This document shows, piece after piece, positions 2,621 to 64,000 of a stretch of 64,000 nucleotides of DNA. Within the stretch, counting starts at the first letter, position 1. Each line of letters begins with the position of its first letter. A program made the position numbers and the translations under genes. Below the pieces are notes generated by a model. It made no database searches and was not told the DNA's origin. It saw only the letters and a list, made by a program, of their open reading frames with translations. Source of the DNA: a virus (taxonomy: Duplodnaviria; Heunggongvirae; Uroviricota; Caudoviricetes); IMG/VR virus record IMGVR_UViG_3300029705_006930, one strand, 5' to 3'.

Positions 2621-3442
2621 CTACCCATTTAATGCGCTGTCAATACTGTCCGCCATCGCATTAATTTCGCCCTGTGTTATTGTAAGGTATGTTTTTGTTA
2701 CGCGCTGGTCACTGTGCTTGTACTTTGCCTGCAAGATGTCCATAACACTGTCGTTGTTCATTGTTTTGCGCGCTGTGTATCCGTATGTTTTGCGCAGTGT
2801 ATGTGTTGCCACGTTCTGTGTGAGGCCCGCCGCCTTTGCACCTTTCTTTAAAATGTCCCACATTTGGTGCAGGCTCATTTGCCCGCCATTGTCACTTTTC
2901 TGGGACTTGATAAGGTAGTCGCTCATTGTATAGTTGCCGTTGAGATGTTCAATGTACATTTCAATGGCTTTTTTTGCGCCCGCTGTTATTTTGTTGCGAT
3001 TGTACTTGCCGGTCTTTTGTTCGTACACATCATAGTAATCTTTTACTGTACCATCCTCATTGAGAACGTCACTGATGCGCGCTCTGAGCAGGTCACTGCC
3101 TCTGTCCCCAATGGTGCAGCCAAACACTACCATCATATAATTGCGGTACTTGTGTCGGCCCCCATGTTCAAGGAAGTAGTTTGCGAGACGCTGAAATTCG
3201 TCCGCGCTGTAAAGAGGCTCTGCACTCTGTGCCTTTTTCACGCCATTGCTTTTGTAAGGCGACGCTGTTCTTGGTGCACGCTGTTTTGGCGCTGGCTTTG
3301 CTGCGGCCATTGCCTGAGCCACTGCATTTGCTATGATGCTCTGGAGCTCGTCCTGTGTCATTTGGAGCTTTGGTGCTGCCGCCTGTGCAGGAAAGTTGAT
3401 TGTATTATTCTGTACGTTTTGTTCTTTTGGCTGAGCGTTCAT
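2621..3442 (-). CDS. tyrosine-type site-specific recombinase (integrase-like)
   Basis: GDRGSDLLRARISDV Arg box; KTGKYNRNK beta-hairpin Lys; HTLRKTYGY (H-x-x-R); KHSD...TKTYL catalytic Tyr region. N-terminal ~60 aa is A/P/Q-rich. Confidence 0.6.
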   Translation of the reverse strand: MNAQPKEQNVQNNTINFPAQAAAPKLQMTQDELQSIIANAVAQAMAAAKPAPKQRAPRTASPYKSNGVKKAQSAEPLYSADEFQRLANYFLEHGGRHKYRNYMMVVFGCTIGDRGSDLLRARISDVLNEDGTVKDYYDVYEQKTGKYNRNKITAGAKKAIEMYIEHLNGNYTMSDYLIKSQKSDNGGQMSLHQMWDILKKGAKAAGLTQNVATHTLRKTYGYTARKTMNNDSVMDILQAKYKHSDQRVTKTYLTITQGEINAMADSIDSALNG

Positions 3443-3599
3443 AGGTGCCTCCTTGTTTGGATTTTTGTTTCCTCTTTTATTGTCTATATTATACCATGAG
3501 AGGGGCTCTTTGATAACGGGGTTTTTGAAAAAACCAAAGAACTTTTTTAAATTTTTTGTGGCGCTTTATATATGTTAATGTATATAAGGAAAGGTTGAT

Positions 3600-4240
3600 G
3601 CGGTTGTTGCGGGGCAGTGTGATTTGGCGCAAAATTAGGCGATTTTTAGGGTGTTTGCAATTGTGTAAGGTCTGGTGTTGGAAATTTGGAAAGGTGTCTT
3701 AATGCCTGAATTTGAGGCTCTGGTGGGGTTATTCTATCACAGTGCTGACGCACTGTGGCGTCGCTGTGCTCCTTTATCTTATCAACGATGAAATGTTTGT
3801 TATTATGTTGCGCGAGAGAGGGTGTGGGGCGCGAAATTTGGGGGCCGGAGAGGTGGGAGGCGCGGTTTTGGGGCGAAATTGGGGCCCGGGTGGCCGGGGC
3901 TAAAATGGGCGTTTCCGGGGGTGTTTTGAGGGGTGTTTGGATAAGTTGCACAAAAATAGAAAAGCCACAGCCGGCTCTGTATGGGGCTAGCTGTGGTTCT
4001 TGTTGTTTATGGGCGTGATTTTGTTGTTTTTATAGTGTTTTGTGGCAAAAATGGTGAAAAAATGTGTAAAAAGGCGCGAAAATGCGTCAAAATGTGTGAT
4101 TTTTGATGATTTTTGGGTGGATTTGGTGTGGAATCAGGGCGAAATGGTGTGGAATGTTGTGTTTGGAGGGTGTTGTGGGGGTGAAAAGTGGACAAATATT
4201 GCTTTTTATGAGCCGAGAGTGAGATATAGCGACGCGTAGC
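3600..4240. repeat. G+T-skewed repeat-rich non-coding region with GCGAAAT(T)-GGGG direct repeats and many G4-G5 runs
   Basis: Top strand nearly C-free over long stretches. Repeats GCGCGAAATTTGGGGGCCGG (~3830), GGCGAAATTGGGGCCCGG (~3871), GGGCGAAATGGTGTGG (~4137), GCGCGAAAATGCG (~4075). ORFs inside are low-complexity. Confidence 0.4.
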
Positions 4241-4359
4241 TTATTATATACATTAAATCTGTCGCAAAGTCAAAATATCCCCCTACGGCAGTTTAAACCG
4301 CTTTATATCGGTAAATATCAACCTTTGTGAAAAGTTGATATTTTTTGTACAAAATTTTT

Positions 4360-4376
4360 CGATTTTTCAAAAATCG
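4360..4376. promoter_or_regulatory. perfect palindrome CGATTTTTCAAAAATCG (candidate operator); adjacent TTGTACAA palindrome at ~4345
   Basis: 8-bp arms around a single C, 15 bp upstream of the -35 box of the 4391 promoter. Confidence 0.35.
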
Positions 4377-4390
4377 GACGCTTGTTGCTA

Positions 4391-4419
4391 TTGACAATCT
4401 GTCGCTCAGGATTTACAAT
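4391..4419 (+). promoter_or_regulatory. sigma-70-type promoter TTGACA-N17-TACAAT
   Basis: Consensus -35 TTGACA (4391-4396), 17-nt spacer, -10 TACAAT (4414-4419). Drives rightward transcription towards the 4546 gene. Confidence 0.55.
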
Positions 4420-4424
4420 TTTAA

Positions 4425-4446
4425 GTGTAAACCGACAAGTTTACAC
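4425..4446. promoter_or_regulatory. palindromic operator-like site GTGTAAAC-N6-GTTTACAC
   Basis: Perfect 8-bp inverted arms immediately downstream of the -10 box, overlapping the predicted transcription start. Confidence 0.4.
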
Positions 4447-4545
4447 CTACAATTCAATATATCTGTTGTGATTGTTCAAAGGGGGGTACAGATACACAAT
4501 CACAAAATCACACACTATTCAATATTTAAAGGAAGGTATTTATCT

Positions 4546-5241
4546 ATGAAAAAACTCACAAGAAAACAGCTTAAAGCAATAAAAAACACATCAAGCTACA
4601 AATATTTTGAACAATTGAAAACCCTTAAAGGCTCAATGCCGGCAGACAGCAAAAAAACCTATATAGAGCCAAATTCAGACCTTGAAAAATTCGCAAAATT
4701 GCAAGTTATGACCTTAAACAAATATATCCGCCAAGACGGCAAGGGACACAACTTGGCAGCACAAGTTTTGCAAGATTTACAACAGCAAGCTTGTTTGCTT
4801 ATTCTGGAAAACCCTTTAAGCCTTGACTGCTTTACAACAGAACAAGATAAACAGACAGAACAACAGCAACAAGCATTTAAGGCGGTTAAAAATGGTTTAT
4901 ATAGGTATTATTATCACAACTATACAAGCCGCAGCACATCTAAAATTCACAATAACCCGTCAAGTTACATTGCAACAGCTACATATCAAGCAACCGACGA
5001 TATCGGCAAAGATGCACGCGACAGCTATCAAATGGACCTTTACAAATTACATCTGGATGCAATTTTGACAATTTTAACAACGGATGAAAAATACATCTTT
5101 AATGGTTTATTTGTTGAAAACTTAACACAAAAACAACTTGCCGAAAAACTCAATAAATCACAAACTTATGTAGCAAAAACACTTGCAAATATCCGTAGCA
5201 AAATCAAAGCAAATGACCTTGATACACCGATAAACAATTAA
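4546..5241 (+). CDS. sigma-70 region-4-like HTH protein (putative phage sigma factor or transcription regulator)
   Basis: ATG at 4546 with AAAGGAAGG RBS. C-terminal LTTDEKYIFNGLFVENLTQKQLAEKLNKSQTYVAKTLANIRSKIK matches sigma-70 region 4 architecture. Confidence 0.5.
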   Translation: MKKLTRKQLKAIKNTSSYKYFEQLKTLKGSMPADSKKTYIEPNSDLEKFAKLQVMTLNKYIRQDGKGHNLAAQVLQDLQQQACLLILENPLSLDCFTTEQDKQTEQQQQAFKAVKNGLYRYYYHNYTSRSTSKIHNNPSSYIATATYQATDDIGKDARDSYQMDLYKLHLDAILTILTTDEKYIFNGLFVENLTQKQLAEKLNKSQTYVAKTLANIRSKIKANDLDTPINN

Positions 5242-5254
5242 ACCATTATATAAA

Positions 5255-5286
5255 AGGCGGTCACATTTGTGACCGCTTTTTTGTTG
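5255..5286 (+). terminator. rho-independent terminator
   Basis: GCGGTCACA-TTTG-TGTGACCGC hairpin followed by TTTTTTGTTG, 14 nt after the stop of the 4546 gene. Confidence 0.6.
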
Positions 5287-6053
5287 TTCAGGTTATCAAA
5301 AAACATATAAATTATGTACAATTGTTGTAAAATATGGATAAATAAACCATTTTAAACTTTTTGGTAATATTTTTGAGTTTTCATTCAATATATATGCGAC
5401 AGCTAATAGCGGTTAGCGGTTAGGGTGTTAAGCCTTGCCCGCTTGACCGCTTTTTGTCTGTCTGTTTTGCTATGCTTAATTTGTAAGTATAGGACAGGAC
5501 AACCTACCAAGTAGGGACAGCCCAAACGCACAATGTTAGCGTGTTTTGGTTGAAAAAATTTCGGTTTTTTCTTACCTATTGATTGTGTCCCTTTAAAAAA
5601 GGACAGCGGTTCACTCCGCAAGCAAGCCGTCGAGAGATAGTAGATGTTGACACCCTCTTATAAACTGCAAGTAAGGTAGTAAAACAAAAGCCGTAAACGG
5701 CTTGGCTCTTTAAGGTGCCGTTTAGCTAACGGATAAGCGGAAATTGTTCAAAAAAATAATTTTTGTTTGTGAGCGGTTCATTGTGAATATCCAAGGATGT
5801 ACACAACCAAAATGAATTGCCGTCATTACATCTTAGGATGTAAAGGTGGTTACGCAAACGAACAAAAACGAAATTTTCAACAAGAGTATGTGAGAATGTT
5901 TACGATATTTCCAAAGCCGACAGTGAAATGATATATCTGTCGGCTTTTCTTGTAAGCGAATAAGCTCAATAAAAAGTTTGTTCTCTTACAAGATTGTACA
6001 CTCGGTACAGTCTCATTGTAAACATACGCTACATATTCCAAGGAGTAACAATT

Positions 6054-10339: not shown

Positions 10340-10481
10340 GGGGGCGGTACCAATGAAAATAAAACGTAAGCTCCTGAGGGCAATCCGCAAAACATACAAA
10401 CACTTGCACTATGCTTTTTGGGATGTATGCAATGCAGACTACTAATGTCACACACAATATGAGCAAAGGGGGAGAATAAAA

Positions 10482-11450
10482 ATGTTCACCAATATGACAG
10501 AGTTTGTGCGAGCGTACAGACAGGGCTGTCGATTTTTATATGCATCATTTGGTTTTGATTTTTCAAAGCCAGTAATTTTTTACAAGACGCGAGGGCCGAT
10601 AACAATTCGCAAACTGGTGCAAAACATTGGCATCTCACACGAGACACATAAAATCGTTATGATAATGCAACAGCCAAATGCAGGACGCACTTGGGAGCGG
10701 AGTCCAAGACTTATAGAAATAAATGCAGAAAACAATTTTGAAATCAATAATTTTAGGCGCAACTATTCTGACCGTCGTATCTCGTATCTGTTTGATAATT
10801 TTAACAGAAAAATAGATGCAAACACTTGGCGTCGTCTAGAAGAAACTATAATTTGGGTTGTAGCTCAACGCAAAGAGCATATTAAAGAAGCACAACCATA
10901 TAGAACACAGCCACAGCCAGAACCATATGTGCGTTATCAGCCGTATACATTGCGCAGTGCTACTAGTTACTCAAGTATAACATTGATACCATATGACAGA
11001 AACAAAGTGTCTGTTTATAAAGGTTTTCAGCCCGGAAAATGGCCACATAAATTGTCAGAAATACAAGACAAAAATGGCTACTACATATATGATATGCGCA
11101 CCAAGTATGCCAACAAAGTAGAAGAAATAAAAGCACAGCGTCGCAAACGCTTGGTTGACAATTATCCCTTTGACGGTATTATTGAAAAGTTTGAAGCTGA
11201 ATATATGGCAGCCAAAAATGAAGTAGCATATTGTATTTTATCGACAGATAACTATACAGTATTGTCTTTAGCTTCGACCGCATTGGGATACATATCATCG
11301 ACGAATAATGCAATCAATACGTTTAAATATCAGGTACAGAAGAAAGTATTCAAAGATATGGACGAAGCCAAACGACGTCGTGCAGATGTTGAAAATAAAA
11401 TAGTTTCGATGAAACGCAGTGTTGCAAATATGCGTTCAACAATGTACTAA
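10482..11450 (+). CDS. hypothetical protein
   Basis: AAAGGGGGAGAATAAAA RBS; 322 aa with no recognised motif. Confidence 0.5.
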   Translation: MFTNMTEFVRAYRQGCRFLYASFGFDFSKPVIFYKTRGPITIRKLVQNIGISHETHKIVMIMQQPNAGRTWERSPRLIEINAENNFEINNFRRNYSDRRISYLFDNFNRKIDANTWRRLEETIIWVVAQRKEHIKEAQPYRTQPQPEPYVRYQPYTLRSATSYSSITLIPYDRNKVSVYKGFQPGKWPHKLSEIQDKNGYYIYDMRTKYANKVEEIKAQRRKRLVDNYPFDGIIEKFEAEYMAAKNEVAYCILSTDNYTVLSLASTALGYISSTNNAINTFKYQVQKKVFKDMDEAKRRRADVENKIVSMKRSVANMRSTMY

Positions 11451-52798: not shown

Positions 52799-53475
52799 AA
52801 GTAACATTGATTGCACATACGCCAAATCCAGAAAATGTTGTGGCAACTGCAGCAAAGCTTTGTTATAGCTCTAAAACTTTAACAGAGCTATATGACGAAA
52901 CAATCAATAAAGACAACGAAAAATATTTAAACAAACTTGCAGAACTGGGACATACAAGCCCATTGGAACATGCGACTTTCACCTTTGGCATCGAAGGTGT
53001 TTCCCGCGCTTTGCTTGCACAGATAACACGCCACAGAATTGCATCCTACAGTGTTAAATCTCAACGTTATGTGTCTGAAGTAAATAGTCACTATGTAATT
53101 CCAGATGAAATTATGAAATCATCAGAAGCCCGAATTATCTATGCTGACGCTCTTGATAAAGTTTCAAAAGCCTATGACCAACTTTCAAAACTTGGTATCG
53201 AAAAAGAAGATGCTCGTTTTGTGCTTCCAAATGCAACAGCTACTCAGATGATTGTCACAATGAATGCCCGTAGTTTGTTAAATTTCTTTGGATTGCGTTG
53301 TTGTAACCGAGCACAGTGGGAAATACGAGCACTCGCTGATGAAATGTTGAAATTGTGCCTTGAGGTTGCACCAACATTGTTTGGTAAAGCAGGAGCTTCC
53401 TGTGTGTACGGTACCTGTTCAGAAGGAGCTATGTGTTGTGGCCATCCAAGAAAGGCAGAAGAATATGCAAGATAA
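52795..53475 (+). CDS. thyX: flavin-dependent thymidylate synthase
   Basis: ITRHRIASYSVKSQRY contains the ThyX RHRxxxxxxS motif; 226 aa. Confidence 0.7.
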   Translation: MKVTLIAHTPNPENVVATAAKLCYSSKTLTELYDETINKDNEKYLNKLAELGHTSPLEHATFTFGIEGVSRALLAQITRHRIASYSVKSQRYVSEVNSHYVIPDEIMKSSEARIIYADALDKVSKAYDQLSKLGIEKEDARFVLPNATATQMIVTMNARSLLNFFGLRCCNRAQWEIRALADEMLKLCLEVAPTLFGKAGASCVYGTCSEGAMCCGHPRKAEEYAR

Positions 53476-54025
53476 TTTTATTATTCTTCTTGTTGGTAAA
53501 AGTGGTTCTGGCAAATCAACTATTGCAAATGAACTGGACAATCAGTTTGGTTGGACACAGGTTCAGTCATATACTACACGTCCAAGACGCCATCAGAATG
53601 AAACAGGACATATATTTGTTAACGACGAACAATTTGATAAATTATCTGATTTTGTAGCTTATACAGAATTCAATGGTTTTAGATATGGGGCTACTCAACA
53701 GCAAGTCGAAGATAACCAGATTTATGTTATTGACCCTGCCGGAATCAAATATTTTCAAGAACAATATACAGGCAAAAAAAATATTTACATATATTACATT
53801 GATGTACCCGTACAGACTCGTCTTGAAAGAATGATAAAACGAGGAGACTCTGCAGGTAAGGCATTAAGTCGTCTTAAACATGATAAAGAAGCATTTAAAA
53901 CAATTGATGATATTGAGAATGTAATTTATATCAACAATGAAAATTTATATGATGCTGTATCAAAAGTTCATATTTCTGTTGTGGTACAACAGTGTATGCA
54001 AGATATACAAAAAGAAAAAGACTAA
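53465..54025 (+). CDS. guanylate-kinase-like (d)NMP kinase
   Basis: P-loop GKSGSGKST; YTTRPRR (GMP-kinase TTRxPR motif); start overlaps thyX end. Confidence 0.55.
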   Translation: MQDNFIILLVGKSGSGKSTIANELDNQFGWTQVQSYTTRPRRHQNETGHIFVNDEQFDKLSDFVAYTEFNGFRYGATQQQVEDNQIYVIDPAGIKYFQEQYTGKKNIYIYYIDVPVQTRLERMIKRGDSAGKALSRLKHDKEAFKTIDDIENVIYINNENLYDAVSKVHISVVVQQCMQDIQKEKD

Positions 54026-54040
54026 CTTTGGAGGAATTAT

Positions 54041-54289
54041 ATGCGCTATACAATTAAAAACATTGAGCGTGATGATGCAATGAGACATATACATAAGATG
54101 ATACTTGGGTGTGAATGCGAATTTGATATCAGAATGTTTGATGTAGGTGAAAGTCTGTATTTTAAAGTTTTTACCGAAGATGAAATTCATCGTGAAATCG
54201 TCACAAGCCATATCGAATCAATTACTGAATATGACAATAAACTCATTGTTCAGACACGTAATACAAAATACACTTTTGAAAAAGTTTAA
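54041..54289 (+). CDS. small hypothetical protein
   Basis: TGGAGGAATTATATG RBS. Confidence 0.4.
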   Translation: MRYTIKNIERDDAMRHIHKMILGCECEFDIRMFDVGESLYFKVFTEDEIHREIVTSHIESITEYDNKLIVQTRNTKYTFEKV

Positions 54290-54300
54290 GGAAAATAATA

Positions 54301-54480
54301 ATGAATATATTTTTTTGGCTGCTTGTAATTATTGCAGCAATCATATTGTGGTTTACCCTGCGCAAAATCTTCACTTGCACAGGCAAATATATCAATAAGG
54401 TTTTAGATGACACAAAAGAAATTATGTCATTTGAAGATAAAGAAGATAAAGAAGAAACAAAGAAAAAGGAGATTAACTAA
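54301..54480 (+). CDS. small membrane peptide (59 aa)
   Basis: TM helix IFFWLLVIIAAIILWF then K/E-rich tail; stop overlaps start of SPFH gene. Confidence 0.35.
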   Translation: MNIFFWLLVIIAAIILWFTLRKIFTCTGKYINKVLDDTKEIMSFEDKEDKEETKKKEIN

Positions 54481-55373
54481 TGAAGAAAAACGGTTTTGTT
54501 GGTGGTGTTCTTGCCGCAGCAATTATTGTAATTGCGCTTTTAGGGATAATCACTTGTATTGAAAAAATTCCAACAGGGTACGTTGGCGTTGTATATAAAA
54601 TGTCCGGTGGTGTGCAGGACGAAATTCTCACACAGGGCTGGCATATTGTTTCTCCAACCAAAAAGGTTAAGGAATTTACTGTTGGTAATGAGCAGATTGT
54701 TATGACAAAAGACGAACGCGATGGCAGCAAAGGTGATGACAGCTTTGCTGTAGCTACAGCAGATAATGCAAATATTGATATTAGTTTTCAGATGTTATAC
54801 AGATATGATGCTCAAACAGTTGTGAATACATTTAAAGATTATAAAGGCATGAGCGGTGAAGATATTGTTAATAACCGAGTGCGTACATTACTTAAATCTA
54901 AAATTTCCGAAGTTACAACCGATTACACAATGATGGATATTTACTCTGGTGACAGAACGACAATCAATCAGGAAATCACAGAACATCTCAATGAAGAATT
55001 CCATCGTCAGTTTGGTATCAATGTTTTGGATGCTTCTATTGTTGATGTACATCCAAGCGAACAACTGCAGGACACAATTAACAAACGTGTAGATGCAATC
55101 CAGAAAAAACAGGAGGCAGAAGCAAATCAGGAACGTATTAAAGTAGAAAAAGAAACAGAACTTATTCAGGCAGAAGCAGATGCAAAAATTGCCGAAGCAA
55201 AAGCACAGGCAGAAGCACGAGTAATCGAAATTGAAGCACAGGCAGAAGCCGAAGCAAATCGTCTTATTGCACAGAGTATTACCCCAGAACTTATCGCTAT
55301 GAAAGAAGCCGAAGCTCGTCTTGTTCACGGCTGGGTGGAAATCACAGGCTCAGAAGCCGTAGTAGTTAAATAA
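54480..55373 (+). CDS. SPFH/band-7 (stomatin/prohibitin/flotillin-like) membrane protein
   Basis: N-terminal TM helix, SPFH core (GYVGVVYKMSGG...), C-terminal Ala/Glu coiled coil AEAKAQAEARVIEIEAQAEAEANRL. Confidence 0.6.
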   Translation: MKKNGFVGGVLAAAIIVIALLGIITCIEKIPTGYVGVVYKMSGGVQDEILTQGWHIVSPTKKVKEFTVGNEQIVMTKDERDGSKGDDSFAVATADNANIDISFQMLYRYDAQTVVNTFKDYKGMSGEDIVNNRVRTLLKSKISEVTTDYTMMDIYSGDRTTINQEITEHLNEEFHRQFGINVLDASIVDVHPSEQLQDTINKRVDAIQKKQEAEANQERIKVEKETELIQAEADAKIAEAKAQAEARVIEIEAQAEAEANRLIAQSITPELIAMKEAEARLVHGWVEITGSEAVVVK

Positions 55374-55426
55374 TAAATTGAATAACAATCTCCGCAGGGG
55401 AAACTCTGTGGAGAACAAGGATAACT

Positions 55427-56749
55427 ATGAGACAAATATTAAATATGAGAGAAACATTAACGCGAGTAAGTTTTTTATTTAAGACTATTGCGAGTACACC
55501 AAGGACAACTGAAAAGAAACGATTGTTGCGTTATATCAACAGCTCAGAACCAGAGAATGTATGTGAAATGTTTCTGTATACTTTACGATTTTTATTGGAT
55601 AACAATGTAACAACAGGTATCGATAAAAAGAAACTCAAAGCTCAAATTAATATGCCTGATATTAATTTTCCAATGAAATGGTCACATATGTTGGAATATA
55701 TCAAAGAAAACAATACAGGAAGGCATGAAGATATTCGCAGAGCACAGCTCTTTATCGAAGATAATCCCGAGAATGCGGAATTTATTGCTGATATTATAAC
55801 AAAATCATATAGGTTAGGACTGACAGCCAAAACAGTAAATGAAGTTTATGAAGATTTTATTCCTGTTTGGTCAGTACAGCAGGCATATCCTTTGGAAAAA
55901 TATCCGCTTAAGGACGGAGAATGGTTTTCTTTATCACAAAAGCTTAATGGGTTCCATGCCTCATATTACAAGGGTAAATTAATAAGCCGACAAGGAAAAG
56001 AAATCAAAGGTTGTAAGCACGTTATTAACGCAATAAACAACTTTAAACTTCAAGATTTCTTTATTGATGGCGAGCTTATCCGGCGTAATGATATTGAACC
56101 TCATCTCTCAGACGAAGAAAATTTTCGACAGACTGTTTCAATTGCGAATTCTGATTCTGACGACAAAACAGACCTGTGTTTTATTTATTATGATATCATT
56201 CCAGCTGATGATTTTGACAAAGGCAAATGTGAAATAACATATCGCCAACGTCTTAATGACATGCATAAATTAAACAGTATAATTCTGCAGACTCCATTTT
56301 ATAAAACGTTTCATATGGTGAAATGGTTTTATCACGGCAATGACCAAAAGAAAATTCAGTTTTGGCTTGATTATGCAAATGAAAATGATATGGAGGGTCT
56401 TATGTTAAATAAGGATACTGTATATCAATGCAAACGTAATTCAGGCATTTTAAAGGTAAAAAGTTGGAAACATTGTGACCTTAGAGTAACGGGCGTTGAA
56501 GAAGGCGATGGCAAATACAAAGGAACCCTTGGAAAACTGATTGTGGACTATAAAGGAAATACTTTGGGATTAAGTGGAATGAGCGATGAGGAACGTTATA
56601 TATTTTGGAATAATCCACAGGACATAGTTGGGAAGATTGTGCTCGTTAAATATAAACAGGAAACAAAAGACAAAACAGGTAAACGTAGTTTGCAGTTCGC
56701 AACCTACCAAGGTGTTAGAACTGATAAAGATGAAGTCAGCTACAATTAA
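55427..56749 (+). CDS. ATP-dependent DNA ligase
   Basis: Motif I KLNGFHA; III FFIDGELI; IIIa FIYYDII; IV EGLMLNK; V ILKVK. Confidence 0.7.
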   Translation: MRQILNMRETLTRVSFLFKTIASTPRTTEKKRLLRYINSSEPENVCEMFLYTLRFLLDNNVTTGIDKKKLKAQINMPDINFPMKWSHMLEYIKENNTGRHEDIRRAQLFIEDNPENAEFIADIITKSYRLGLTAKTVNEVYEDFIPVWSVQQAYPLEKYPLKDGEWFSLSQKLNGFHASYYKGKLISRQGKEIKGCKHVINAINNFKLQDFFIDGELIRRNDIEPHLSDEENFRQTVSIANSDSDDKTDLCFIYYDIIPADDFDKGKCEITYRQRLNDMHKLNSIILQTPFYKTFHMVKWFYHGNDQKKIQFWLDYANENDMEGLMLNKDTVYQCKRNSGILKVKSWKHCDLRVTGVEEGDGKYKGTLGKLIVDYKGNTLGLSGMSDEERYIFWNNPQDIVGKIVLVKYKQETKDKTGKRSLQFATYQGVRTDKDEVSYN

Positions 56750-56765
56750 TAGATGGGGGAATAAA

Positions 56766-58065
56766 ATGAACGTAAAAGATTGGCTTGGAGAAGAAAATCA
56801 GCTCGGCATTGATATTGCTACAAAAAAATATATTAAAAACGAATCCTTTGATGAATTTATCGGAAGAATTTCAAATAATAATCCAGAAATTAAAAGAATT
56901 ATTTTAGAAAAGAAATATCTGCATGGTGGCAGAACACTCAGTAACTACAATACGGGTAATGGTGCATCCACATCCAACTGTTATTCAAGTGGTTACTGCC
57001 CGGATGATACAGCAGGTATTCTGGAGCTAAATAAAAATATAGGTCTTACATATAAAGCACAGGGTGGGCAGGGTTTATCTCTGAGTAAAATCCGTCCAAA
57101 GGGCTGTAAAATCAGCAAAGGTGGATATGAAACTGATGGCATCATTCCATTTATGCAGATGTTTGATACTACAACAGCAAGTATTTCACAGGGCGGTTCA
57201 AGAAAAGGAGCTCTGATGATGTCTCTTGACTGCTGGCATAAAGAGGTTAAAGATTTTATCACAATCAAAACCGATACAAATCTTATTACAAAAGCAAATC
57301 TGTCAGTTGAAATTGACGATGAATTTATGACCTGTGTCAGAAAATATTATGATGAAGGCTTGGTATTTGAAAAACAAGTAAACTTTACTTATGATGGCGG
57401 TGAAACCAGATATATGGTGAAACCTATTGAAGTATATCAGCTGATTTGTAAAACGGCTCATGAATATGCTGAGCCAGGCATTATCTATACTGAGCAGTTT
57501 CGCAACTATAATTTAATGCAGTACGATGATGAATATCAGATTGTAACTGGTAACCCATGTGGAGAACAGCCTTTGCCACAGAATGGGGCGTGCAATCTGG
57601 GCAGTATTAACCTTGCAGAATTTGTAAAACACCCATATTCATCAGAATCAGAGTTTGATTTTGTAGATTTCCGCAATACAGTAGAAATTGCAATCAGAGC
57701 ATTGGATGACGTACTGGATTATGGTGCTGAACTTCATGCTTTGCCAGAACAGAGAGAAATGGCAAAGAATTATCGCAATATAGGTCTTGGCATTATGGGC
57801 CTTGCTTCAATGCTTTTTAAGATGGGCATTAAATATGGCAGTGATGAATCTCTCCATCTTGTAGATACCATTGGCTATACAATGTTTAGAACTGCTTTGG
57901 AGACATCTACTGAGCTCGCAAAAGAAAAAGGAACTTTCCCAAAATATAAAGATGTTGTTTTTGATGCAGAAATTATTAAGGCACATTTTAATGCAGACGA
58001 AATCGCAGAGCTCCGCAAATATGGTCTTCGCAACTGCTCATTGCTTTCAATCGCTCCAAGTGGGT
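56766..58065 (+). CDS. ribonucleotide reductase catalytic subunit, exon 1 (likely class II-like; no NrdB seen)
   Basis: GATGGGGGA RBS; NPCGEQPLPQNGACNLGS active-site Cys/Glu loop. Reading frame ends in the conserved SIAPSG segment, 18 nt before the in-frame stop. Confidence 0.6.
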
Positions 58066-59266
58066 TGACTAACTGGCTCACATAAAACATTTTTAATTGC
58101 TGGAACATCCTTAGAGCTTCATAAACTACAACATAATGATGAAATATACATAAGTGTGAATGTTTGAAAATTATGAAGATTGGATAATCAGCAGCGAAGC
58201 TCTGAATAGGAGAACGTTCAACGACTATCCCTTAATGGGAGTACACTGCAAGTGATTGGCAGTGGAAATAAAATGTACTAATTATTTATAAACTTAGGTA
58301 AAAGTAATAATAGAATTAAAAAATATAACATATGACGACATATATAATTTATATATAACACAACAAAAATCACAGCGACAAGTAGCAAACATACTTCACA
58401 TTGGGCAAACATCGGTTAGAAGGTTGTTACAAAAATATAATATTCCATCTAGGACTTCAGAAGAAAGCAAACAAACTCCAGATTTCATTGCTCGTCAAGC
58501 AGAACTTGCTCATAGATATCAAAATGAGTATAGAAAAATAATTGTCAAACAGTGTAAATGGTGTGGAAAAGATTTCGAAGTAGATGGTGAACATAAAAGA
58601 AAAAAATATTGCTCCCCAGAATGTGTTTCTATGTCTCAAAAATCTAAAACCAAAACACAATTTTGCCAGCGTTGTGGTAAAGAAATAAAAATATCATCTG
58701 GAAGACATTATAAAAGAATCTATTGTGATGAATGTAATGTTGTTGGCAGAAGTGAAAAGCAAATTAATAAGATACAAACTACTTGTGGATATTGTGATGC
58801 AAAAATCGAAGTAATTCCAAGTGTATATAAGGCAAATCGTTTTTGTTATTGCGATATGAATTGCATGGCTAAGCATTACGCAGAAATATATAGCGGGGAA
58901 AATAATCCCTCTTGGAAAGGTGGAAAATCACATCATTACACAGGTGGGTTTTATAATGCTCGGCAAAAGGCAAGAGAAAGAGATAAATATACTTGTCAAA
59001 TATGTGGAATTACGGAAACTGACTTTGGTCAACAAATGAGTGTGCACCATATCAAAAATTATAGATTATTTGAAGATAAGGCTGAAGCAAATAAACTTGA
59101 TAATTTAATATGTCTATGTGAACCTTGTCACCGATTTGTACATTCGAACAATAATAAAGAAGGATTGTTTATAAATAATTAGTAAAGATATAGTCTCAAC
59201 TTATATGAAAATATAAGCAGCCAGAAGATGGCGGCGATGGTGTAGCGAACCATCGCGAAGACATTG
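58066..59266 (+). mobile_element. group I intron with embedded HNH homing endonuclease
   Basis: Canonical R element GTTCAACGACTA (58215-58226) and S element AAGATATAGTC (59185-59195). 5' exon ends in T, intron ends in G. Splicing restores the conserved ...SIAPSGSIGTMLNVTTGCEPAF. Boundaries +/- a few nt. Confidence 0.6.
58424..59182 (+). CDS. HNH homing endonuclease (intron-encoded)
   Basis: C-terminal CQICG...HHIKNY...NLICLCEPCHRFVH HNH motif plus several CxxC pairs. TTG start in track; in-frame upstream sequence encodes an HTH (SQRQVANILHIGQTSVRRL) with no ATG. Confidence 0.6.
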   Translation: MLQKYNIPSRTSEESKQTPDFIARQAELAHRYQNEYRKIIVKQCKWCGKDFEVDGEHKRKKYCSPECVSMSQKSKTKTQFCQRCGKEIKISSGRHYKRIYCDECNVVGRSEKQINKIQTTCGYCDAKIEVIPSVYKANRFCYCDMNCMAKHYAEIYSGENNPSWKGGKSHHYTGGFYNARQKARERDKYTCQICGITETDFGQQMSVHHIKNYRLFEDKAEANKLDNLICLCEPCHRFVHSNNNKEGLFINN

Positions 59267-60246
59267 CAATTGGCACAATGCTCAATGTGACAACAGGATG
59301 TGAACCTGCATTTAGATTGTCATATAAACGTAAAACAGAAAGCTTACATAAAGATAAAGAAGTTTATTACGATGTATTTCTTCCGGAAATAGAAGAATTT
59401 AAACGTCTTTACCCAAACAAAGAATTGCCAGAGTACTTTGTATCAAGTGAAAATATTTGCTGGGCAGACCGAGTAAAAATGCAGTCAGTATTGCAGGAAC
59501 ATATTGATACAGCTATTTCATCAACAGTAAATCTGCCAAATTCAGCAACAATTGAAGATGTTGAAGACCTGTATTTGTATGCTTGGGAACAAGGTCTTAA
59601 GGGTATTACAATCTACCGTGATGGCTGTGCAAGAACTGGTATTCTCACAACAGATAAAACTGGTAAAAAAGAATCACCTGAAACATCGGAAAAGATAATA
59701 TCAGCTGAATTGCCAAGAGGCTACATTATGGATGTAAGTGACGACCTTATTGGTTATAAACGTAAACTTAATACAGGTTGTGGTTCAATTCATATGGAAG
59801 TATATTTCGATGAAATATCTGGTGAACCACAAGAAACCTTTGTCAACATTGGCTCTAGCGGCGGCTGTGAACGTAATTATCAACTCATCTCACGCCTTAT
59901 ATCTCTTGCATTAAGAGGTGGTGTTCCAATTGAATCTATCATTGACCAAACAATGAGTATTCGCCCTTGCACAGCTTATATCAACAGAACAAAAGCAAAA
60001 GGGGATACTTCAAAGGGAACTTCTTGCCCGAGCGCCATAGGCTATGCTTTACAAGAATTACAAAAGAAAATTAATGATAGGTGTTTTGGTTGCGAAGAAG
60101 AAATTGCAGAATCAGAATGCAATTGTAATATAGAAGACAAAGCAAGAATAAGTACATATACACCTTGTCCAGAATGTTCATCCCAATTGCAATTTGAAGG
60201 TGGTTGTATTATCTGTAAAAATTGTGGGTGGTCAAAATGCGATTAA
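59267..60246 (+). CDS. ribonucleotide reductase catalytic subunit, exon 2
   Basis: SSTVNLPNSATIEDVEDLYLYAWEQGLKGITIYRDGC conserved RNR C-terminal region; C-terminal Cys cluster CPECS...CKNCGW. Confidence 0.6.
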
Positions 60247-60773
60247 AGCAATGTAAAAAATGTAAACAAGAACTACCTACTTCTATGTTCTATAAAAGTT
60301 CTTACACAAAAGATGGATTTAGAGATTATTGTAAAGAATGTTGTAAACAAAACAATAAAAATTATTATGTAAAACATAGAACAGAGATAATTGAAAGAAC
60401 TAAACAGTATGTTGACAACAATAAAGAAAAAATTAAAGAGTATCAGAATCAATATTCTTATGTACATAGAGATGATAGAAAAGAATATCAAAAAATATTA
60501 TTTGATGATAAAAGAGAATTTTTAAATTCTTTAAAATACCCTTGTGTAAAATGTGGAGAGGACAGGCCATGGATAATTGATTTTCATCATATAAATCCTA
60601 AAAATAAATGTTTTACGGTTGGAAATAAATATCGTGGAAATATAGAAGTAATACAAGCAGAAGTTGAAAAATGTATATGCTTATGTAGAAATTGTCATGC
60701 TGAATTTCATTGGATATATGGCGCTGTTCCAAAATATCCTGAATTAGCATTAAATGAATATTTAGCGCAATAA
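60237..60773 (+). CDS. free-standing HNH endonuclease
   Basis: CVKCG...HHINPKNK...CLCRNCHAEFH HNH motif; overlaps the end of RNR exon 2. Confidence 0.55.
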   Translation: MRLKQCKKCKQELPTSMFYKSSYTKDGFRDYCKECCKQNNKNYYVKHRTEIIERTKQYVDNNKEKIKEYQNQYSYVHRDDRKEYQKILFDDKREFLNSLKYPCVKCGEDRPWIIDFHHINPKNKCFTVGNKYRGNIEVIQAEVEKCICLCRNCHAEFHWIYGAVPKYPELALNEYLAQ

Positions 60774-60819
60774 ACAATACAGAGGGCTGGGAACTCCAGC
60801 CCTCCCAAAAGGAGAAATA

Positions 60820-61197
60820 ATGTATATAGTTTTAGTATATATCGGCGTTTTCATTGTGATATGGAGTATTCTTTTCGTCATCTTGAAATTATGTGCTGAT
60901 ATTGATAAGCAATGGCGTATAAGCTATCCAGTCATTAATTTTAATATATTTATGAATGCATATACGTTAGCCTCTGAACAATGGGAACTAGATGAGCGTA
61001 CAGTAACCTTTTGGGATATGAGGTACTACGGAACATTTAGAACTACGTTCAAATTTAATTATTTGGATTATAGAAAATATAAAAAATGGAGAGAAACCTG
61101 TAAAACCGAAGAATGGAACAATAAACAGTATCAGGTTTTAGACCAGATTATTCAAAAATATAAGGAGAATAATAATGCATCAGCATATAAAGGTTAA
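60820..61197 (+). CDS. hypothetical membrane protein
   Basis: N-terminal TM helix [22 protein letters not shown]; AAAGGAGAAATAATG RBS. Confidence 0.45.
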
Positions 61198-61609
61198 ATA
61201 CTTTACAGATAAAATTGATAATCTTGCAAGCATTAAAAAAGGTAATTGGATTGATTTGCGAGCAGCTGAGGATGTAGAACTGAAAGCTGGCGAATTTAAG
61301 CTTATTCCACTTGGTATTGCAATGCAGCTTCCAGAGGGCTACGAAGCACATATTGTCCCTCGCAGTTCTACATTTAAAAACTTTGGCATAATTCAGACAA
61401 ACCATTGTGGTATTATCGACAACTCATACTGCGGAGACAATGACCAGTGGCTTTTCCCTGCATATGCGTTGCGTGACACTGTAATTAAAACAAATGACCG
61501 TATTTGTCAGTTTCGTATAATGGAAATTCAGCCAGAAATTACTTTTGAAGAAATATCAGTACTGAGCGGCCCAAACCGTGGTGGATTCGGTTCAACAGGA
61601 ATTAATTAA
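61175..61609 (+). CDS. dut: dUTP diphosphatase (trimeric dUTPase)
   Basis: [24 protein letters not shown]; [10 protein letters not shown]; FRIMEI dUTPase motifs. Confidence 0.6.
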
Positions 61610-61620
61610 GGAGAAAGAAT

Positions 61621-62118
61621 ATGAGTGTTGTAGCCGCAAAAGTTTATCCCGATAAGGTTGTTATCGCAGCTGACTCTATTATGATAAAAGGCTGGTCAAA
61701 ACGCAATACAAATGTGACAAAATTAGCAGAAATCAATGAAATGATTATTGGTGGTGTGGGCACCGCACAGGAAGACAGTTTGATGTGGCACTATATGCGC
61801 ACCCATAAACCACTATCCGCGACCGAAAAAGATATCCTTGCCTTTATTATTGAATTCTCTCAGTGGAAAAATACTATGATAGGGAACAGCAATATTGAAA
61901 ATGAATATTTGCTAATTTTCCAAGGACATTTATTCCAGATTGATAATATGTTTGTAAATGAAATAACAGACTATTCAGCAATTGGTGCAGGTGAAGACTA
62001 TGCGTTGGCAGCACTTTACCTTGGGCATACCCCTAAAGAGGCCACAAAAGTTGCCTGTGAATTGTCTTGTTATGTTTGTGAACCTATTATTGAATATGAA
62101 ATGAAAAAGGAAAAATAA
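61621..62118 (+). CDS. HslV/proteasome beta-like Ntn-hydrolase candidate
   Basis: N-terminus (M)SVVAAKVYPDKVVIAADS resembles HslV TTIVSVRRNGHVVIAGDG; GGVGTAQEDS resembles the GSTADA motif; tentative. Confidence 0.3.
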   Translation: MSVVAAKVYPDKVVIAADSIMIKGWSKRNTNVTKLAEINEMIIGGVGTAQEDSLMWHYMRTHKPLSATEKDILAFIIEFSQWKNTMIGNSNIENEYLLIFQGHLFQIDNMFVNEITDYSAIGAGEDYALAALYLGHTPKEATKVACELSCYVCEPIIEYEMKKEK

Positions 62119-62204
62119 AATAATTACTGCAAAAAAATATATGTCCGTGAACTTTGTTTGGTGAACACGAGGCTCCCTTTATTCACCTTCATATGATTTA
62201 GCAA

Positions 62205-62232
62205 TAGAGCCGTCAGATAAGCGGCGGCTCTA
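62205..62232. promoter_or_regulatory. AGAGCCG-TCAGATAAGCGG-CGGCTCT hairpin in the gap upstream of serine recombinase (possible att or terminator element)
   Basis: 7-bp perfect stem; preceded by GTGAACTTTGTTTGGTGAACAC partial inverted repeat. Confidence 0.25.
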
Positions 62233-62267
62233 TAATATAATACATTATTATACAAGGAGGTATTTTT

Positions 62268-62411
62268 ATAGGAGAAGATTTTAATTATACATATCAAAAT
62301 AATTACACACTTGTTACTTTTGACGATGAAACTAATTTACATATCATTTTAAAATTTACCGATGACTCCAACGATATGTTCGACATGTTTGTCGAGGAGC
62401 TTATATCATAG
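62268..62411 (+). CDS. small ORF carrying the family C-terminal motif (...NDMFDMFVEELIS), apparent non-ATG (ATA) start
   Basis: Perfect AAGGAGG 7 nt upstream of ATA at 62268. In-frame ORF open from 62241 to TAG at 62409-62411. Only in-frame ATG is 11 codons from the end. Confidence 0.3.
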   Translation: MGEDFNYTYQNNYTLVTFDDETNLHIILKFTDDSNDMFDMFVEELIS

Positions 62412-62419
62412 GAGGCTAT

Positions 62420-64000
62420 ATGAAAAGAGTTGCATGTTTATATCGTGTTTCAACAAAAGGACAAGTTGATAAAGATGACATTCCTATGCAGCGTAAAGAA
62501 TGCAGTGAATTTATTAAAAAACAGGGATGGCAATTAGTCAATGAATATTATGAAAAAGGTGTCAGTGGCTATAAAAAATCAGCAGACCAACGTGATGTAT
62601 TGCAAACAATCAAGAATGATGCTTTAAATAATCAGTTTGACATTCTGCTTGTCTATATGTTTGACAGATTAGGACGACGCGAAGATGAAACTCCATTTAT
62701 TCTTGAATGGTTTACAAAACAAGGTATAGAAATGTGGAGTGTTAAAGAAGGCCAACAGTCCTTTTCACAACATATTGATAAATTACTTAACTACATACGT
62801 TTCTGGCAAGCCAGCGGTGAAAGTCATAAGACTTCTATGCGTGTTGATAGTAGCCATAGGCAAATGGCTGAAGAAGGCAAATTTAGAGGCGGCGATGCAC
62901 CATATGGATATATGCTTGTAAAAACAGGTGTATTCAATAAAAAGAAAAAAGAATTATTAAAATTAGTCATCAATACCATTGAGGCCCCTATTGTGCAGCT
63001 TATATATAAGTTAGCTTTGGAGGGATATGGTCAAACAAAAATAGCCAAATATTTAAATGAGCACGGCATAAAAACTCGAAACAATAAAATGTGGAATAGT
63101 GGTACAATTGGTTATATCCTAAAAAATCCAATTTATAAAGGTTATCCTGCATATAGAAAGAAAACAGGACAAGGAGAGGGAGTTCATAATTTGCCAAGTT
63201 CAGAATGGATATTATCTTCGGCACAGCAAATTGAGCTTGTTATAATTTCAGAGAATGATTGGGATAGAGTGCAGGAATTACGTACACAACATCATAATTC
63301 TCCTAATCATAACACAATCACAAATTCACCATTATTATTAGTTGGGTTGACTTACTGTGGATGCTGTAAAAGTCCATTGACTACCACTTATTCATATAAG
63401 TACAATAAAGATAAAACAAAGGTATATCAGCGACCAAAATATCGTTGCTCTGGTAAGGCAAATGCAAAAGCACTCTGTGATGGACAAACCGTTTATAGCG
63501 CAGAGAAATATGAAAAAGCTGTTTTAAATCAGATTGATATTTATTTAAATAAAATCAAAAATACACCACAATCTCAACAAGATACAACAGCTAATGATTT
63601 TCAAAAAAATATTAAATCTCTCGAGCATAAATTAGCAAAAATCAATAATATGATAGAAATATTATCTGATGAAGTTGGTAATGCCTTGATAGGAGAAAGT
63701 CGATTTACACCAGAAGTTTTGGCAGAACAAATTAACAAAAAACAACAAGATAAAATTTTAATACAAAATGAACTTGACAAAATAAAACAAGAGGCAGATA
63801 ATTATAACCATGAACAAATCAATACACAGCAATTAAACCAAGTTATTCCAATCTGGAAAGAAAGGTTTGACGGATTTTCAACTGAAAAGAAAAAACGTTT
63901 ATTGCGTATCTTGATTTCACGCATTGAATTTAATAGAGATACAATTATTATAGATTTTAATACAACTATTCAATGCTTTTTAGATGCTATCACTGCATAA
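62420..64000 (+). CDS. large serine recombinase (phage integrase type), truncated at window end
   Basis: N-terminal resolvase catalytic domain AC(L)YRVSTKGQ with Ser nucleophile; recombinase domain; Cys-rich zinc-ribbon CGCCKSP...C; coiled-coil C-terminus. Confidence 0.7.
   Translation: MKRVACLYRVSTKGQVDKDDIPMQRKECSEFIKKQGWQLVNEYYEKGVSGYKKSADQRDVLQTIKNDALNNQFDILLVYMFDRLGRREDETPFILEWFTKQGIEMWSVKEGQQSFSQHIDKLLNYIRFWQASGESHKTSMRVDSSHRQMAEEGKFRGGDAPYGYMLVKTGVFNKKKKELLKLVINTIEAPIVQLIYKLALEGYGQTKIAKYLNEHGIKTRNNKMWNSGTIGYILKNPIYKGYPAYRKKTGQGEGVHNLPSSEWILSSAQQIELVIISENDWDRVQELRTQHHNSPNHNTITNSPLLLVGLTYCGCCKSPLTTTYSYKYNKDKTKVYQRPKYRCSGKANAKALCDGQTVYSAEKYEKAVLNQIDIYLNKIKNTPQSQQDTTANDFQKNIKSLEHKLAKINNMIEILSDEVGNALIGESRFTPEVLAEQINKKQQDKILIQNELDKIKQEADNYNHEQINTQQLNQVIPIWKERFDGFSTEKKKRLLRILISRIEFNRDTIIIDFNTTIQCFLDAITA

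Follow-up and report, generated by a model that had tools for sequence, protein, structure and literature searches.

Positions 58066-59266 of the window (the whole 64,000-nucleotide stretch of DNA analysed here, from an uncultured phage) very probably form a mobile group I intron of the IA type, inserted in a class II-like ribonucleotide reductase (RNR) gene. The insertion is exact, the fold of the inserted RNA is conserved and covaries among related introns, the endonuclease gene that it carries is intact and under constraint, and alleles of the RNR gene are found both with and without the intron. The original prediction, a group I intron with an HNH homing-endonuclease gene splitting the RNR gene, is borne out by exact splice sites, R and S elements that pair as P7, the U·G pair of P1, a gapless RNR motif, an intron-less allele and covariation.

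The interrupted ribonucleotide reductase gene

The features of the RNR gene are listed below; L010 is the intron-less allele used for comparison.

56766..58065, + strand: RNR exon 1, 433 codons and one further base (the first of a Ser codon), with U58065 as its last base
58066..59266, + strand: predicted group I intron of the IA type (1201 nt); compared with L010, an exact insertion
58083..58085, + strand: in-frame TAA, at which ribosomes leaving exon 1 would halt six codons past 58065
59266..59266, + strand: terminal G (omega-G), the 3' end of the intron
59267..60246, + strand: RNR exon 2, the two remaining bases of the Ser codon followed by 325 codons and a stop; it includes the TSCPD domain and, at the C-terminus, a zinc ribbon

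Exon 1 opens with the ATG at 56766, with GGGGGAATAAA just upstream, and is collinear with the RNR of L010. As had been noted at the outset, the RNR frame stops soon after SIAPSG and resumes 1.2 kb further on: it runs into the TAA at 58083-85, and 58065 and 59267 join in frame. An early in-frame stop is a general published feature of bacterial group I introns and their ORFs (PMC3073962). The uninterrupted RNR gene of L010, which is 80% identical, reads ...AGTGGGT·CAAT... at this point, as do the predicted ligated exons; over a longer span L010 reads GCTCCAAGTGGGT·CAATCGGCACAATGCTC and the window exons read GCTCCAAGTGGGT up to the junction and CAATTGGCACAATGCTC after it. Because the intron-less allele has exactly the ligated sequence, the boundaries of the insertion are unique to the nucleotide. 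The L010-type target (GCTCCAAGTGGGTCAATCGGCACAATGCTC) is nearly identical to the window exons, with one mismatch in 30 nt.

The exon and intron ends proposed originally, U58065 and G59266, restore SIAPSG-SIG-TMLNVTTGCEP, and the alignment with T. maritima NrdJ (1xje) runs ungapped across the junction (siapsgsigtmlnvttgcepaf versus TIAPTGSISNIADTSSGLEPNF). The spliced RNR protein matches Pfam Ribonuc_red_lgC at 4.7e-105, plus TSCPD, and its closest solved relative is the B12-dependent RNR of T. maritima (6.9e-60). Conserved residues are retained in both exons. The RNR is one gene, not two fragments and a stray HNH gene. With its RNR barrel, the catalytic NPCGE, B12-dependent enzymes as the most similar proteins and related phage genes annotated as class II or B12-dependent, it appears to be a class II-like (NrdJ-type) enzyme. 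Across eight JGI samples, seven intron copies are identical and the eighth has one mismatch; the intron is therefore not an assembly artefact.

Fold and covariation of the ribozyme

The helices of the intron, given 5' to 3', are as follows.

58060..58081, + strand: P1, exon GUGGGU (58060-58065) with internal guide GCUCAC (58076-58081)
58088..58093, + strand: P3 5' strand CAUUUU, with its partner AAAAUG at 58270-58275
58098..58217, + strand: P4-P5-P5a/b-P6-P6a domain, from the Rfam alignment and covariation
58098-103/58188-193, + strand: P4, invariant
58107-110/58182-185, + strand: P5
58117-124/58171-178, + strand: P5a, covaries
58194-196/58215-217, + strand: P6, covaries
58200-203/58209-212, + strand: P6a, covaries
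58216..58227, + strand: R element GTTCAACGACTA / GUUCAACGACUA, with the P7 5' strand GACUA at 58223-58227
58228..58264, + strand: P7.1 (58228-31/58237-40) and P7.2 (58244-49/58259-64)
58276..58293, + strand: P8 5' strand, forming a perfect 18-bp stem with 59167-59184
59167..59184, + strand: P8 3' strand, overlapping the 3' end of the endonuclease gene (its last five codons plus stop)
59185..59195, + strand: S element AAGATATAGTC / AAGAUAUAGUC, with the P7 3' strand UAGUC at 59191-59195
59200-06/59211-17, + strand: P9, 4/7 pairs covary
59220-22/59230-32, + strand: small helix after P9
59234-41/59249-56, + strand: P9.1, with a GUAGCGA loop, 5/8 pairs covary

All these helices are intact in the window intron, the region from P9 to P9.1 spanning 59200..59256 (+), and the group I core is complete: P3-P8, the P7 pseudoknot formed by R and S, and the P4-P6 domain. 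The R and S elements that the original prediction had placed on either side of the HNH ORF are matched by Rfam in the correct order. For covariation we used six diverged introns from the same RNR site, after putting a GAAA tetraloop in place of each ORF. RNAalifold returned 93 pairs, with compensatory changes at 56. Once P7 was included, 98% of cells are paired (versus 37-42% when the partners are slid) and 57/94 pairs show double changes, with the caveat that consensus structure and pair counts come from one set of six sequences. In 500 shuffles the observed values were never reached.

The 5' exon ends in U and is complementary to the guide, with the wobble pair U58065·G58076 at the splice site. 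The guide tracks synonymous changes in the exon (AGU/AAU/ACU with C/U/G, and GGG/GGC/GGA with C/G/U): P1 column 3/28 holds CG in three introns, AU in two and GC in one, column 7/24 changes from GC to CG, and L164 adds an A-U variant. P3 has double changes in 6/7 pairs; for this helix we dropped the Rfam register (AUUUUUA/UGGAAAU), as the sister comparison prefers the slightly different CAUUUU/AAAAUG. P7 shows one compensatory change, U-A to C-G, in L103. Compensatory changes are found in 3/4 pairs of P7.1 and 6/6 pairs of P7.2 (together 9/10), and the position of these two helices between P7 and P3' is a hallmark of subgroup IA; within it, the intron is probably IA2-like. P2 is absent from the window intron, where the gap between P1 and P3 is only 6-7 nt. 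P8 is 11-19 bp long in 6/6 copies, with unrelated sequences and 13/14 aligned pairs covarying. P10 is not claimed: by eye, about 5/6 pairs can form in the window, without conservation in the sister introns.

In the mechanism that we propose, the pre-mRNA would fold into P1 and P3-P9, with the guide GCUCAC holding U58065 in P1. Free guanosine would then attack after U58065 and the freed exon after G59266, joining ...AGU GGG U to CA AUU GGC..., so that the conserved APSGSIG is restored and a single RNR of 759 aa is produced. The TAA six codons into the intron would keep exon-1 ribosomes off the ribozyme.

The endonuclease gene and its missing start codon

The ORF lies in the P8 loop.

58296..58299, + strand: putative SD-like AGGT, 7 nt before ATA 58307
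58307..59182, + strand: HNH homing-endonuclease gene, with the proposed start ATA 58307 and the stop TAG 59180-82 within the P8 3' strand

The encoded protein has an N-terminal HTH, three CxxC...CxxC (zinc-ribbon) modules and a C-terminal HNH. The HNH assignment made originally for the ORF between R and S is corroborated by Pfam (PF01844, 27.1 bits versus a cut-off of 21.4, 4.6e-6). The protein also matches PHROG 8446 at 2.1e-29, with PHROG HNH families at best 2e-29. We found 94 homologues; all residues invariant in 20 of them (Cys, His and Asn, zinc-binding and catalytic) are present in the window endonuclease, including H250, H251, N265, N269, C274, C277, H278 and H282 of the HNH. A search of solved structures detected no sequence relative (best E 0.05), and an IMG/VR search for close relatives gave only distant partial matches. 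As judged by its residues and its 295-codon frame, free of stops and frameshifts, the HNH endonuclease gene is intact. The upstream in-frame HTH of the original prediction is weakly matched (HTH_28 E 0.002, under the Pfam cut-off), but homologues back it. The HTH segment lies upstream of any canonical start, and its pS of 0.57-1.0 versus pN of 0.09-0.5 in intron-borne copies argues strongly for purifying selection, among copies that are likewise start-less.

The endonuclease frame is open from 58298. The original statement that the ORF has no ATG holds for the part before the HTH, where ATG, GTG and TTG are all absent, but not for the whole frame: the first canonical start is the TTG at 58424, downstream of the HTH, which gene callers use for a 252-aa product, and the frame reaches its first ATG only much further on. 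Seven intron-borne relatives also lack a canonical start and two others (L164 and L165) have an in-frame ATG; the start-less copies were chosen for their short gene calls and are a biased sample, while L164 and L165 were found without that bias. We had held that all intron-borne copies lack an AUG, and withdrew this when the unbiased metagenome scan gave L164 and L165. Among the sequences compared, the lack of a canonical start is recurrent, not universal. The free-standing relatives L009 and L099 have an ATG. In the window, L097 and L101 the position equivalent to the ATG reads TTA; since the endonucleases of L097 and L101 are only 60-64% identical to that of the window, the start-less state is old, and the frame is still open.

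In each start-less copy an SD-like motif stands 3-9 nt ahead of ATA or ACG, and L097, L101, L102, L103 and L159 repeat one arrangement, in which ATA or ACG is preceded by an SD and placed just behind an in-frame stop. The start of the window endonuclease is likely the near-cognate ATA at 58307, 7 nt past AGGT. Other routes to expression were considered. We rejected a frameshift that would lead into the endonuclease frame, whether from an out-of-frame ATG or at the upstream A8 runs in L097, L101 and L103: a TGA lies in the target frame past the A-run, and the window and L097 do not share the same offset. We also rejected an alternative code with TAG or TGA as sense, under which the upstream frame, which lies in the ribozyme core, is also without ATG. 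A local hairpin hiding the ribosome-binding site (RBS) in the I-TevI style was not found, the fold being no better than shuffles (z 0.15), and a search for an internal promoter for the endonuclease gave 22 promoter-like sites versus 19.8 expected, with no enrichment.

The original prediction left a choice between a non-canonical start and a decaying gene. On the latter reading the ribozyme would still splice but carry the endonuclease gene as a dead passenger, its start lost and its message untranslated, leaving the intron immobile like that of T4 nrdB with its defective I-TevIII. The missing canonical start before the HTH favours this reading, as do the truncation of the HTH that initiation at TTG 58424 would cause and the ATG of both free-standing and two intronic relatives. 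Furthermore, initiation at ATA or ACG is very weak, and ATA is a very poor start codon in bacteria. We nevertheless consider a dead passenger unlikely: the frame is unbroken and keeps all its invariant zinc and HNH residues, the segment before the TTG evolves as under strong purifying selection in copies that are start-less too, the frame has stayed open through an old loss of the ATG, and an SD-like motif precedes ATA or ACG in each copy. Decay is thus the less supported of the two options, and the non-canonical start the better supported.

On the reading of a functional endonuclease, initiation at a near-cognate codon, most likely ATA 58307, would keep synthesis of the protein low and limit ribosome traffic through the ribozyme; in mixed infections the enzyme would nick or cleave RNR alleles that lack the intron, L010 for example, close to the junction, and repair would copy the intron in. 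A tentative but plausible extension is that near-cognate AUA and ACG starts in the intron-borne HTH-zinc-ribbon-HNH lineage, with AUA 58307 as the start in the window, are a selected form of damping that spares the ribozyme fold, the free-standing members using AUG. Non-AUG starts are a published means of damping the translation of bacterial intron ORFs (PMC3073962).

Alternative readings and relation to known phage introns

Rfam supports the intron in part. RF00028 (Intron_gpI) matches its P3-P7 and P7'-P9 cores, which flank the ORF in the order expected (58089-58269, 33.2 bits, E 2.7e-6, model positions 50-157; 59183-59215, 23.8 bits, E 0.0017, model positions 219-251), but both scores are below the gathering score of 50 bits, and a scan of the whole window gave no intron match. 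These scores could be taken to mean that the intron has decayed, splicing is lost and the RNR is a pseudogene, as could the weak P10 and the sister L164, which ends in A where 10 of the 11 sister introns end in G. We regard this as very improbable. The match is sub-threshold and in two pieces because an 873-nt loop with the HNH gene sits in P8: sister introns of the same layout score 36-43 bits, and the nearest ORF-less relative, L049, which the 5' core of the window intron matches (nhmmer E 5e-26), scores 95.6 bits across the full model. With every helix intact, both exons keeping their conserved residues and the locus unchanged in all but one of the eight samples (one mismatch in the eighth), the evidence argues against decay. 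The window intron agrees with the RF00028 model in the order of its two cores and departs from it in a large P8 insertion and a slightly different P3 register.

Aeromonas phage Aeh1 likewise has an HNH gene that separates the halves of its RNR large-subunit gene (nrdA/mobE); there mobE is free-standing, no intron is present and two NrdA polypeptides assemble (PMC3045599). That the window RNR works in the same way, with the insertion staying in the RNA, is the least credible reading of all: while two RNR ORFs are called (439 and 322 aa, which with the 252-aa product recur in all eight JGI copies), exon 2 has an in-frame ATG at 59278 and functional split RNRs are documented (PMC3045599 and PMC3653736), the window endonuclease is embedded in a complete, covarying ribozyme whose guide co-evolves with the exon, the split falls inside the conserved APSG/SIG, without splicing the first half would end in LTNWLT and the second would lack SIGT, and ATG 59278 has no SD. 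Splicing is expected to unite the two halves in the RNA.

The sequences assembled here comprise eleven intron-plus alleles at one RNR site, one intron-minus allele (L010) and two free-standing endonuclease paralogues. By blastn, the ribozyme core has relatives in 369 cultured phage records, and its motif is common to 85 IMG/VR contigs. Megablast of the window against cultured phages gave no match, and reference genomes hold no close RNR, the best cultured relatives being just 39-41% identical. All 60 sampled cultured-phage records are uninterrupted over the junction, a weak test in that half-length matches would miss the E-value cut-off.

Phage introns of the IA2 type with HNH endonucleases reportedly include those of T4/RB3 nrdB (I-TevIII), SPO1 DNA polymerase (I-HmuI), Bastille (I-BasI), Pf-WMP3 (I-PfoP3I) and Twort nrdE. 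The window intron resembles them in being an IA intron with P7.1/P7.2 at a conserved site of a nucleotide-metabolism gene, with an endonuclease ORF in a peripheral loop, an in-frame stop near the 5' splice site, and alleles both with and without the intron. It differs in its host gene, apparently a class II-like (NrdJ-type) RNR, in its site (APSG/S), in the placement of the ORF in P8, and in an endonuclease with an N-terminal HTH and three zinc-ribbon modules but no canonical start. The RBS of I-TevI is said to be sequestered, and non-AUG starts to have been reviewed by Edgell, Chalamcharla and Belfort in 2011. The weak or non-AUG start and modest SD that appear to precede the window ORF inside the ribozyme recall such damped intron endonucleases (PMC3073962), although the candidates, as read from sequence, are ATA and ACG and not GUG or UUG, and no RBS-sequestering hairpin is predicted.

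Standard pipelines miss this intron, as the whole-window Rfam scan is blank and the RNR is called as fragments. The locus extends the known phage homing introns by a new insertion site, APSG/S of a probable NrdJ-type RNR, and by an HNH family that is structurally uncharacterised, and its alleles and paralogues form a ready comparative set. Finally, recurrent start-less genes that are clearly under protein-level selection would offer a clean test case for the quieting of intron ORFs by non-AUG initiation.

Boundaries of the insert in the ribonucleotide reductase gene

The frame opening at ATG 56766 encodes the ribonucleotide reductase (RNR) barrel and runs via ...LLSIAPSG to the TAA at 58083-85, while a second RNR frame picks up near 59267. 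With 58065 joined to 59267 the frame is kept, giving a 759-aa protein that reads SIAPSG-SIG-TMLNVTTGCEP across the join. Pfam Ribonuc_red_lgC matches the spliced protein as a single unbroken hit (residues 79-550, E 4.7e-105), the TSCPD domain is also detected, and the alignment with the B12-dependent RNR of Thermotoga maritima (1xje, E 6.9e-60) is gapless at the junction (siapsgsigtmlnvttgcepaf vs TIAPTGSISNIADTSSGLEPNF). The frames, Pfam and 1xje thus bear out the original prediction that the RNR frame breaks after SIAPSG and is restored by this join.

The IMG/VR contig L010 carries an uninterrupted, 80% identical RNR with the DNA sequence GCTCCAAGTGGGT·CAATCGGCACAATGCTC, while the exon ends in the window are GCTCCAAGTGGGT and CAATTGGCACAATGCTC. 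As the flanking bases differ at each boundary, no other placement fits and the insert is fixed at 58066-59266 (1201 nt); the last base of the 5' exon is U and that of the insert is G, and the splice sites proposed earlier (58065 and 59266) match the uninterrupted L010 sequence. The stretch is present on eight JGI metagenome contigs, seven identical to the window and one with a single mismatch in 1331 nt, and the insert is therefore not an assembly artefact.

A covarying group I ribozyme

The elements of the insert are as follows.

58060-65 with 58076-81: P1, exon GUGGGU with GCUCAC, wobble pair U58065·G58076
58089-58269: Intron_gpI piece 1, 33.2 bits, E 2.7e-6, model positions 50-157 (P3 to P7/P3')
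58216-58227: R element
58276-58293 with 59167-59184: P8, 18-bp perfect stem between the two Rfam pieces
58298 to TAG 59180-82: open endonuclease frame, its last codons part of the P8 3' strand
59183-59215: Intron_gpI piece 2, 23.8 bits, E 0.0017, model positions 219-251 (P7' and P9)
59185-59195: S element

The R and S elements flank the HNH ORF as described, and the observation was right to the nucleotide. The Rfam Intron_gpI scan answered in part: over 57900-59450 it gave both pieces in the right order, but there was no match on the window at the gathering threshold, nor across all 64 kb at E <= 0.1. The sub-threshold score is explained by the 873-nt loop of P8, which holds the HNH ORF; sister introns of this layout reach 36-43 bits. 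Contig L049 carries, in a tape-measure-like gene, an intron of 294 nt (10469-10762) that has no ORF, is homologous to the 5' core of the window intron (nhmmer E 5e-26) and scores 95.6 bits across the full Rfam model. The R+P7.1 motif was found in 85 IMG/VR contigs and blastn relatives of the core in 369 cultured phage records, making the ribozyme a member of a common phage intron family. P7.1 and P7.2 between P7 and P3' mark the intron as subgroup IA; P2 is absent. The TAA at 58083-85 fits a published pattern in which most bacterial group I introns carry an in-frame stop near their 5' end (PMC3073962). A candidate P10 was weak and not conserved in sister introns, and we make no claim for it.

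Some viral contigs look like they carry heavily intron-laden genes: L017 has four Rfam-scoring introns of this family within 3.2 kb (2762-5886), L082 has four Rfam-scoring group I introns within 1.6 kb (619-2140), and many of the same family are packed closely in IMGVR_UViG_3300045988_173509 (L027, L070, L072, L078).

Through HNH protein homologues we reached diverged introns at the same RNR site (L097/L098, L101, L102, L103 and L104; later L157, L158, L159, L164 and L165). Six copies were aligned with the ORF loop replaced by GAAA and 8 nt of exon retained per side. RNAalifold returned P1, P3, P4, P5, P5a/b, P6, P6a, P7.1, P7.2, P8, P9 and P9.1, with compensatory changes in 56 of 93 pairs and a covariation term of -22 kcal/mol. 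Once the P7 pseudoknot was put in by hand, 98.0% of cells held standard pairs, as against 37-42% with partners slid by 1-3 columns, a percentage inflated by deriving the structure from the same six sequences; less affected is the count of both-side changes (57/94 pairs), and none of 500 shuffles reached any observed measure. Every copy forms a P8 of 11-19 bp, and the stem sequences are unrelated. In P1, AGU, AAU or ACU before the Gly codon goes with guide base C, U or G, and a Gly codon GGG, GGC or GGA with C, G or U, respectively. That the guide follows exon changes is direct evidence for selection on the exon-intron pairing predicted to set the 5' splice site.

The L164 intron (ERZ1034873 contig, about 3470) apparently ends in A, not G, before exon 2 (…GTAAAAA/CTATTGC), and is alone among eleven sister introns in lacking a terminal G, perhaps because its 3' splice site lies elsewhere or because it is inactive. 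The endonuclease ORF of L164 extends right to the S element.

A decayed, non-splicing intron is unlikely, given that every helix is intact and both exons retain the conserved residues. It is likewise unlikely that the RNR works as a gene in pieces, as Aeh1 NrdA does: the ORF is surrounded by a complete covarying ribozyme, the break interrupts a conserved motif and would cost SIGT, and ATG 59278 lacks a preceding SD. The Rfam pieces and the covarying fold uphold the reading of a group I intron with an HNH endonuclease ORF in the RNR gene.

The endonuclease and its missing start codon

The endonuclease matches Pfam HNH (27.1 bits, cut-off 21.4), HTH_28 weakly and PHROG HNH families (down to 2e-29); no solved structure is detectable as a sequence relative. 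In an alignment of 20 of its 94 homologues, the window copy has all invariant Cys, His and Asn. Two close homologues (L009 and L099, 61% identity) are free-standing, with intergenic gaps that leave no room for a ribozyme, so the family lives both inside and outside introns.

As noted, the ORF has no ATG start: none of ATG, GTG or TTG occurs upstream of the HTH; the gene-caller start, TTG 58424, would lose this segment. The ATG of the free-standing homologue P0002 aligns with TTA in the window, L097 and L101. Seven intron-borne copies, a sample biased by selection for short gene calls, have no canonical start upstream of the HTH, and they carry an SD-like motif 3-9 nt upstream of an in-frame ATA or ACG; in all except L157 this arrangement directly follows an in-frame stop.

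Candidate starts in the start-less copies (SD-like motif, spacer, codon)
Window: AGGT, 7 nt, ATA 58307
L102: GGAGG, 9 nt, ATA
L103: GAAGGGG, 7 nt, ATA
L159: AAGGTGA, 6 nt, ATA
L097: GAGGTGA, 6 nt, ACG
L101: GAGG, 9 nt, ACG
L157: GGTGGT (doubtful, and set apart from the in-frame stop), 3 nt, ATA (not as clear)

TTG is found in L104 and L158. In L164 and L165, found free of the short-call bias, an in-frame ATG is present, which makes the start-less state recurrent and old, yet not universal. Over the HTH segment (27 codons upstream of the called window start), pS is 0.57-1.0 versus a pN of 0.09-0.5 among start-less copies, so that it has been kept as protein. Initiation from non-AUG codons has been described as a means of limiting translation of intron ORFs (PMC3073962). 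Initiation at ATA 58307 (or 58310) is our best single guess, a tentative one; that the gene is dead seems improbable.

Between P8 and the endonuclease frame, L097 (about 2910-2955), L101 (about 2480-2523) and L103 (about 2350-2375) have a conserved-looking out-of-frame ATG followed by eight A's (ATGACAAAAAAAAG or ATGTTAAACAAAAAAAAG); a TGA stands in the way of a productive frameshift from it into that frame. A weak sigma-70-like match (58256-58285, +; TTGGCA, 18 nt, AATTAT; 9/12) overlaps P7.2/P3'/P8 just upstream of the frame, and is probably chance, such sites being no commoner than in shuffles of the region.

Neighbourhood and relation to known introns

The region 53360-64000 resembles a phage module for nucleotide metabolism and replication.

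54480-55373: Band_7/lipoprotein-like gene
55427-56749: ATP-dependent DNA ligase
60237-60773 (+): second HNH endonuclease gene, free-standing, 178 aa (phrog_2255, E 2.3e-26), its ATG overlapping the final RNR codons (ATGCGATTAA)
61175-61609: dUTPase
61621-62118: HslV-like peptidase
62420-64000: large serine recombinase, continuing past the window end

Given the recombinase, the element may be temperate or integrating, and with the second HNH gene the RNR locus holds two unrelated homing-type nucleases. In L159 (Logan SRR12529045 contig) the same RNR is in three pieces, the first two separated by a LAGLIDADG-type ORF (393-1196), and the HNH intron is also present at the APxG/S site; the first insertion, with no Rfam group I match at E <= 0.01, could be an intron of some other type, what is left of an intein, or a free-standing insertion. 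In the cultured C. difficile phage L106 (Clostridioides phage pCD1602_4, CP069348.1, unannotated record), the RNR is interrupted elsewhere, by 671 nt (1278-1948) that follow immediately on NPC[GA] in the catalytic NPCGE motif, again without an Rfam group I match at E <= 0.01; sister phage ES-S-0107-01 gives the same two-piece RNR match.

We found no DNA-level match of the locus to cultured phages, and 60/60 cultured-phage RNRs sampled are uninterrupted at the site, although the test is weak because half-length matches would miss the E-value cut-off. Phage RNR genes with HNH or GIY-YIG group I introns are classic, with T4 nrdB and nrdD, SPβ bnrdE/F, Twort nrdE and B. cereus group nrdE/F as examples (PMC3653736, PMC2248736, PMC3984707). 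The present locus is set apart by its NrdJ-type host gene, its insertion site (APSG/S) and its uncharacterised endonuclease architecture. A 2013 survey counts just two phage nrdJ genes as split, one of which, phiYS40 nrdJ, is split without an intron (PMC3653736). A specialist would find nothing surprising at the locus; the start-codon pattern is its only experimentally fertile part.
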